Of a DNA stretch of 64,000 bases, positions 29,419 through 29,446 are shown piece after piece. Source of the stretch: Escherichia coli (lineage in GTDB: Bacteria > Pseudomonadota > Gammaproteobacteria > Enterobacterales > Enterobacteriaceae); NCBI RefSeq assembly GCF_024298765.1, contig NZ_CP101210.1; one strand, given 5' to 3'. The notes under the pieces are model-generated. The model was not told the origin of the DNA. It did not search any database and saw only the letters and a list, made by a program, of their open reading frames with translations. The stretch's first letter is position 1. Every line of letters starts with the position of its first letter. Made by a program: the position numbers and the translations under genes.

Positions 29419-29446
29419 GGCGGGAAATGCTCCCGCCTTATTTTTT
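29419..29446 (+). terminator. dksA intrinsic terminator (overlaps the gluQ start)
   Basis: Dyad ggcggga-aatgc-tcccgcc followed by ttatttttt; the gluQ ATG sits in the loop. Confidence 0.65.

Follow-up and report, generated by a model that had tools for sequence, protein, structure and literature searches.

The closest described counterpart of the locus analysed here is the intergenic terminator separating dksA from gluQ-rs in Shigella flexneri 2457T (Caballero et al. 2012, BMC Microbiol 12:226, PMC3542578), which is the same element at the orthologous position. In lacZ reporter assays with the S. flexneri DNA, a fragment reaching from dksA to gluQ and lacking the dksA promoters remained at baseline, revealing no independent gluQ promoter, while removal of the intergenic region resulted in an about 10-fold rise in expression and mutations disrupting the stem in a more than 2-fold rise (PMC3542578). 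The lowering of downstream expression and its relief by stem disruption are published for the S. flexneri orthologue only. The same study explicitly noted that a first AUG is located on the terminator loop and showed that it is not used (PMC3542578). When the intergenic region was expressed together with gluQ-rs, Edman degradation yielded the N-terminus TDTQYIGRFAP, which follows the second methionine, using protein produced from a T7/pelB plasmid construct and not from the native locus; the authors concluded that GluQ-RS consists of 298 residues (PMC3542578).

As parallels, Caballero et al. cited the rpsU-dnaG-rpoD terminator before dnaG and the recA-recX terminator (PMC3542578). By analogy, dnaG and recX would be, like gluQ, promoterless distal genes that are expressed only from transcripts passing an intrinsic terminator, a likeness taken from published discussion and general background. 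Both systems differ from gluQ in belonging to other operons with unrelated sequences. In the case of dnaG, read-through is combined with an unusual or weak ribosome-binding site. A further comparison is offered by hairpins that sequester start codons: the stem-loop behind dksA also holds an AUG and a Shine-Dalgarno-like G-rich run, but its AUG is non-initiating and the predicted pairing of the real start is not conserved. For Escherichia coli K-12, an internal terminator has been described that creates a dksA-specific transcription unit inside the ligT-sfsA-dksA-yadB-pcnB-folK operon (Conway et al. 2014).

We analysed this locus in a 64,000-nt stretch of an E. coli chromosome (the window). Its segment 28800-30500 shares 100% identity with many E. 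coli chromosomes, matches 5,424 of 5,426 complete E. coli genomes and covers the area of sfsA, dksA, gluQ (gluQRS, formerly yadB) and pcnB. The RefSeq annotation mapped onto the window places the dksA coding sequence (151 aa) at 28935-29390 on the plus strand, preceded by a strong Shine-Dalgarno sequence (AAGGAG, anti-Shine-Dalgarno duplex of -9.2 kcal/mol). For gluQ, the longest open reading frame spans 29427-30353 (308 aa) and is opened by an ATG at 29427-29429, and the automatic NCBI annotation (PGAP) gives a coding sequence of 298 aa at 29457-30353 on the same strand. The product is the tRNA glutamyl-Q34 synthetase GluQ-RS (YadB): full-length family models match above their curated cut-offs (NF004312, the NCBIfam GluQRS equivalog, 623 bits with a cut-off of 453; TIGR03838, 380 bits with a cut-off of 277), and the solved structure PDB 1NZJ aligns to residues 11-308 of the long reading frame with E = 5e-204. 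Differences to S. flexneri 2457T are at the strain level only, with TDTHY in place of TDTQY after the start and AAC in place of AAA two codons upstream.

A search for terminator-like sites across 28000-31500 returned the hairpin behind dksA as the best site, with eight pairs, six of them G-C. Its 5' arm AGGCGGGA (29418-29425) and 3' arm TCCCGCCT (29431-29438) enclose the 5-nt loop AATGC (29426-29430). GGCGGGA occupies 29419-29425 and TCCCGCC 29431-29437, and an outer A-T pair lengthens the stem to 29418-29438 on the plus strand. The isolated hairpin folds with -14.5 kcal/mol, and its 91-nt context is far more stable than dinucleotide shuffles (z = -4.9). Directly 3' of the stem follows the T-rich tract TATTTTTTGTT (29439-29449, plus strand), with seven T among the first nine nucleotides. 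This G+C-rich stem with a short loop and an adjacent U-rich tract is the anatomy of an intrinsic terminator, and terminator-site search, folding, conservation and the published stem mutants agree on the element. The strong terminator that the original prediction had described after dksA is therefore present with exactly the proposed sequence. The prediction had also placed the gluQ start codon at 29427 inside the hairpin; an in-frame ATG does lie in the loop (29427-29429, plus strand), where the K-12 record starts the 308-aa form, but it is non-functional as a start. A second in-frame ATG is found at 29457, 18 nt downstream of the stem.

To place the element in a wider context, we compared the loci of 80 Enterobacteriaceae species that were retrieved with the GluQ protein. 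The hairpin was recognisable in 79 of the 80 loci, 75 of which carry the GGCGG(G/C)...CCCGC(C/T) core and four a variant stem; the remaining locus is cut by a contig end. What varies is the loop, both in sequence and in length (3-6 nt), the reading frame upstream and the spacing between hairpin and ATG (10-28 nt). None of the six core G-C pairs changes across species, so that they give no evidence of covariation. Compensatory changes are confined to the top pair (A-U to G-C in four sequences) and the outer pairs, and overall 86% of the cells in the alignment are paired versus about 55% with slid partners. Covariation thus lends the hairpin modest support, and the case for the structure comes mainly from energetics and experiment. 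That the stem is nearly invariant would fit selection on termination efficiency.

Published transcript ends in E. coli K-12 demonstrate that RNA ends at this site in vivo. Term-seq detected a 3' end at position 160097 on the minus strand with 3,097,035 reads at OD 0.4 and 254,767 reads at OD 2.0, counts that carry no normalisation between the two conditions (Adams et al. 2021, PMC7815308). This position converts to 29442 in the window, within the T-run and 15 nt before the gluQ start, and the signal ranks with the stronger Term-seq 3' ends among the matches listed. The site has a Rho score of 1.16 ('No'), lies outside the Rho termination regions and reaches an intrinsic terminator score of 7.47 (PMC7815308). 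In agreement with Rho-independence, DirectRNA-seq coverage across the site fell from 250 to 62 without and from 250 to 72 with bicyclomycin, steady-state ratios in which termination is mixed with differential RNA stability (PMC7815308). Because gluQ is annotated from the loop ATG in K-12, the Term-seq tables list this 3' end of the dksA terminator under gluQ as 'internal, 15 nt from the start codon' (PMC7815308). Neither dksA nor gluQ has an entry in the TERMITe supplements.

Taken together with the S. flexneri reporter data, these results bear on several points of the original prediction. The two checks that it had named, 3'-end mapping and lacZ fusions with hairpin mutations, are both already in the literature, the former with a strong Rho-independent end in the T-run (PMC7815308), the latter with more than 2-fold higher expression (PMC3542578). 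Dependence of gluQ on read-through is correct and likewise already published, given that the gene has no promoter of its own and that removal or mutation of the hairpin raises reporter activity. Its proposed coupling to dksA transcription is borne out by the promoterless fragment from dksA to gluQ, which stays at baseline (PMC3542578).

We are highly confident that the locus is best explained by a strong but leaky intrinsic dksA terminator at 29418-29449, with gluQ expressed by read-through and started at 29457. Most transcripts from the dksA promoters would end at about 29442, and the minority passing the terminator would be the sole gluQ mRNA, because gluQ is without its own promoter. The fraction reading through may be roughly a quarter, judged by steady-state coverage, or about a tenth, judged by the lacZ fusions.

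One observation goes beyond this scheme. In stationary phase, RT-PCR showed a 20-fold increase of the intergenic product, compared to 1.3-fold for the dksA and gluQ amplicons (PMC3542578), which hints at regulated read-through and is left unexplained by a simple constitutive terminator. The hairpin could accordingly be a regulated attenuator, at which stationary phase or stress raises read-through via a trans-acting factor or an alternative RNA fold, and the Term-seq counts, about 12-fold lower at OD 2.0 than at OD 0.4 in unnormalised form, point in the same direction. We nevertheless consider this reading unlikely. The six-pair core does not vary even between genera with intergenic flanks that defy alignment, but purifying selection on a short G-C terminator stem also yields such invariance. 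The nascent 5' arm of the terminator (CAGGCGGGAA, 29416-29426) can pair with dksA codons (UUCGCCGUCUG, 29302-29312), but this candidate antiterminator fold falls 5.8 kcal/mol short of the terminator fold (-40.7 vs -46.5 kcal/mol) and spans about 105 nt of translated sequence. By our estimate the pairing has the length that chance predicts, and both partners are invariant and hence free of any covariation signal; it was the only candidate and is not significant. An Rfam scan of 28600-30600 at E <= 1 gave no relevant match, and no riboswitch was found by Caballero et al. (PMC3542578). A more specific version, in which the attenuator is conditionally leaky, read-through increases in stationary phase or under osmotic stress and the stem is kept near-invariant by factor recognition or a competing fold, appears quite improbable to us. 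If true, such conditional leakiness would couple the glutamyl-queuosine modification of tRNA-Asp to stress, beyond the co-transcription of gluQ with dksA.

RNA 3' ends usually lie 7-9 nt past the stem of a terminator. The end mapped here leaves a tail of only 4-5 nt, a hint of some 3' trimming, and steady-state RNA data cannot separate termination from decay. The end at 29442 might consequently be mainly a product of processing or of an exonuclease stop, with the hairpin shielding the dksA mRNA rather than terminating transcription. This is very improbable in view of the canonical anatomy and the score of 7.47, and transcriptional lacZ fusions respond to mutations in the stem. Trimming after termination accounts for the short tail and leaves the terminator function intact.

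The leaky intrinsic terminator thus remains the preferred reading of the hairpin, and the second part of the argument concerns the position at which gluQ translation starts. The annotations are in conflict: in NC_000913.3, gluQ (b0144) begins with the loop ATG (927 nt, 308 aa), whereas PGAP starts it at 29457 (897 nt, 298 aa). Four mutually independent kinds of evidence, among them the Edman sequence from S. flexneri, speak for 29457. Tetracycline-inhibited ribosome profiling (TetRP) of chromosomal E. coli K-12 assigned a new yadB start at +30, K-12 position 160082, with signals of 13.7/72.9/24.8 in three samples versus 0/0/0 at the annotated ATG, and N-terminal proteomics of K-12 detected the peptide TDTQYIGR (Nakahigashi 2016). 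Converted to the window, K-12 160082 corresponds to 29457 and K-12 160112 to 29427. The crystallised YadB chains (1NZJ, 4A91) have a length of 298 aa, and their alignment covers residues 11-308 of the long reading frame. Homology to Glu-tRNA synthetases and the TIGR03838 match begin at residues 16-19 of this frame, and the NF004312 alignment begins at residue 6 and overlaps partly with the ten-residue extension. In addition, an ATG at the position of 29457 is present in 80 of 80 loci, including three in which the tblastn match begins a few residues later and the ATG was seen by eye. Translation of gluQ starts from the ATG at 29457, outside the hairpin and 30 bases beyond the loop ATG.

The loop ATG itself shows a very different distribution. 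In frame, it was found in Escherichia only, in the window and in two further loci (L003, L005), and it was absent from all non-Escherichia genera. Even within the genus it is not fixed: E. whittamii has ATA in its place, the divergent 'E. coli' AF16 has the loop ATTAC without an ATG, and in Escherichia sp. MOD1-EC7003 the ATG is present but out of frame, with a T-run that is 1 nt shorter. E. coli alone is uninformative about selection on this triplet, because identity over 29400-29470 is 93% or higher for each of the 5,424 matching genomes. Further in-frame ATGs upstream of the start turn up sporadically at -15, -18, -39, -42, -45 and -60, as expected by chance, and in at least seven species the stretch from hairpin to start is interrupted by in-frame stops. 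By our estimate, the 69-nt open stretch before the true start would contain an in-frame ATG by chance with a probability of ~0.3, or about 0.1 if the position is limited to the inside of the hairpin, so an ATG in that stretch is unsurprising. The ATG in the loop is an accidental in-frame triplet, specific to Escherichia, which was adopted as the start in the K-12 reference annotation.

A start at the loop ATG, with translation requiring both read-through and melting of the hairpin, opens the longest reading frame, agrees with NC_000913.3 and has the Shine-Dalgarno-like GGCGGGA just upstream (-6.3 kcal/mol), but as the main route it is already refuted and we give it almost no chance, since Edman degradation, TetRP and N-terminal proteomics all point to 29457, some Escherichia lack the triplet or carry it out of frame and other genera do not have it, the Shine-Dalgarno-like bases are locked in the 5' arm of the -14.5 kcal/mol stem, and neither TIGR03838 nor the Glu-tRNA synthetase homologies nor the crystallised protein include the ten extra residues, with NF004312 overlapping them partly. 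This stem would be expected to block initiation at the loop ATG, consistent with the TetRP zeros; very rare initiation could be missed by these zeros, and a trace of the 308-aa isoform may occur in Escherichia. Two claims of the original prediction fall with this reading, namely that the gluQ start codon sits within the hairpin, against which experiments, PGAP, crystal structures and conservation speak in concert, and that gluQ translation needs the hairpin to unfold. As translation starts at 29457, no unfolding is necessary to expose the start codon. Neither the authentic start nor a Shine-Dalgarno sequence belonging to it lies within the structure, and the supposed start codon within the hairpin is an artefact of annotation: the K-12 record carries an outdated start, which misled the original prediction.

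The start at 29457 has no Shine-Dalgarno sequence. The 20 nt before it pair with the anti-Shine-Dalgarno sequence with only -1.8 kcal/mol. Across 76 loci, the median energy at the gluQ start was +0.6 kcal/mol and none reached -6 kcal/mol, which is weaker pairing than in random 20-mers from the window (median -2.2 kcal/mol). The start without a Shine-Dalgarno sequence, noted by Caballero et al., is thus a conserved property, and it would be expected to make translation inefficient. The low Shine-Dalgarno likeness of 29439-29456 and of the orthologous stretch (L002-L081) probably stems from the U/A-rich tail of the terminator. Members of the Enterobacter group have a T-poor tail (GTTACCGTTGAT), and only 12 nt separate the stem from the gluQ start there. 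We considered and rejected the idea that pairing across the terminator base sequesters the true start: the probability of being unpaired is 0.07 in the window strain, yet this is not conserved, the median for the true AUG across 76 loci being 0.35 versus 0.41 with a shuffled flank.

Several other features were recorded in the neighbourhood. A small hairpin at 29381-29402 (AUGGCUG...CAGCCGU, -10.3 kcal/mol) holds the UAA stop codon of dksA in its loop and looks similar in most species. Its apparent covariation with synonymous sites did not hold up (native vs swapped, -7.06 vs -6.81 kcal/mol, p = 0.45), and it was present in 53 of 70 sequences versus 45.7 +/- 3.6 with shuffled 3' parts. It does no better than the G+C-rich last codons predict, and we rejected it as unproven. 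Upstream of dksA, a weak terminator-like hairpin at 28865-28890, between sfsA and dksA, consists of CTGCTATTTATAGCGG followed by CCTCATTTTT and coincides with an 'orphan' Term-seq 3' end at K-12 160652 (window 28887; 48,011 reads in the LB OD 2.0 sheet; Adams et al. 2021, PMC7815308). Transcripts of sfsA or from upstream promoters may stop there, just before dksA. A weaker 3' end lies within dksA at window 29152 (K-12 160387), with 29,202 reads at OD 0.4, an intrinsic terminator score of 1.04 and no Rho dependence (PMC7815308). At the distal end of gluQ, a promoter-like TTCTCA-17-TATGAT (30333-30368 area, ending at 30361) overlaps the stop codon and has a predicted transcription start near 30368, which is the 'S-159171' promoter of the pcnB-folK unit (Conway et al. 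2014). For pcnB, RefSeq places the start at 30413 on an ATT, whereas the mechanical open reading frame begins at an upstream TTG at 30392.

The terminator between dksA and gluQ was already known, and in terms of mechanism our analysis adds nothing new apart from conservation: both the hairpin and the gluQ start without a Shine-Dalgarno sequence are conserved across the 80 Enterobacteriaceae species sampled. The practical value lies in the correction of the annotated gluQ start (b0144). In the scheme that we favour, GluQ-RS would be translated from the weak AUG at 29457, outside the hairpin, and the lack of a Shine-Dalgarno sequence at this ATG implies that gluQ would be held low at two levels while tracking dksA transcription. 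The combination of a leaky terminator and a start without a Shine-Dalgarno sequence is thereby a published illustration of a tRNA-modifying enzyme of low abundance being tied to the transcription of dksA.
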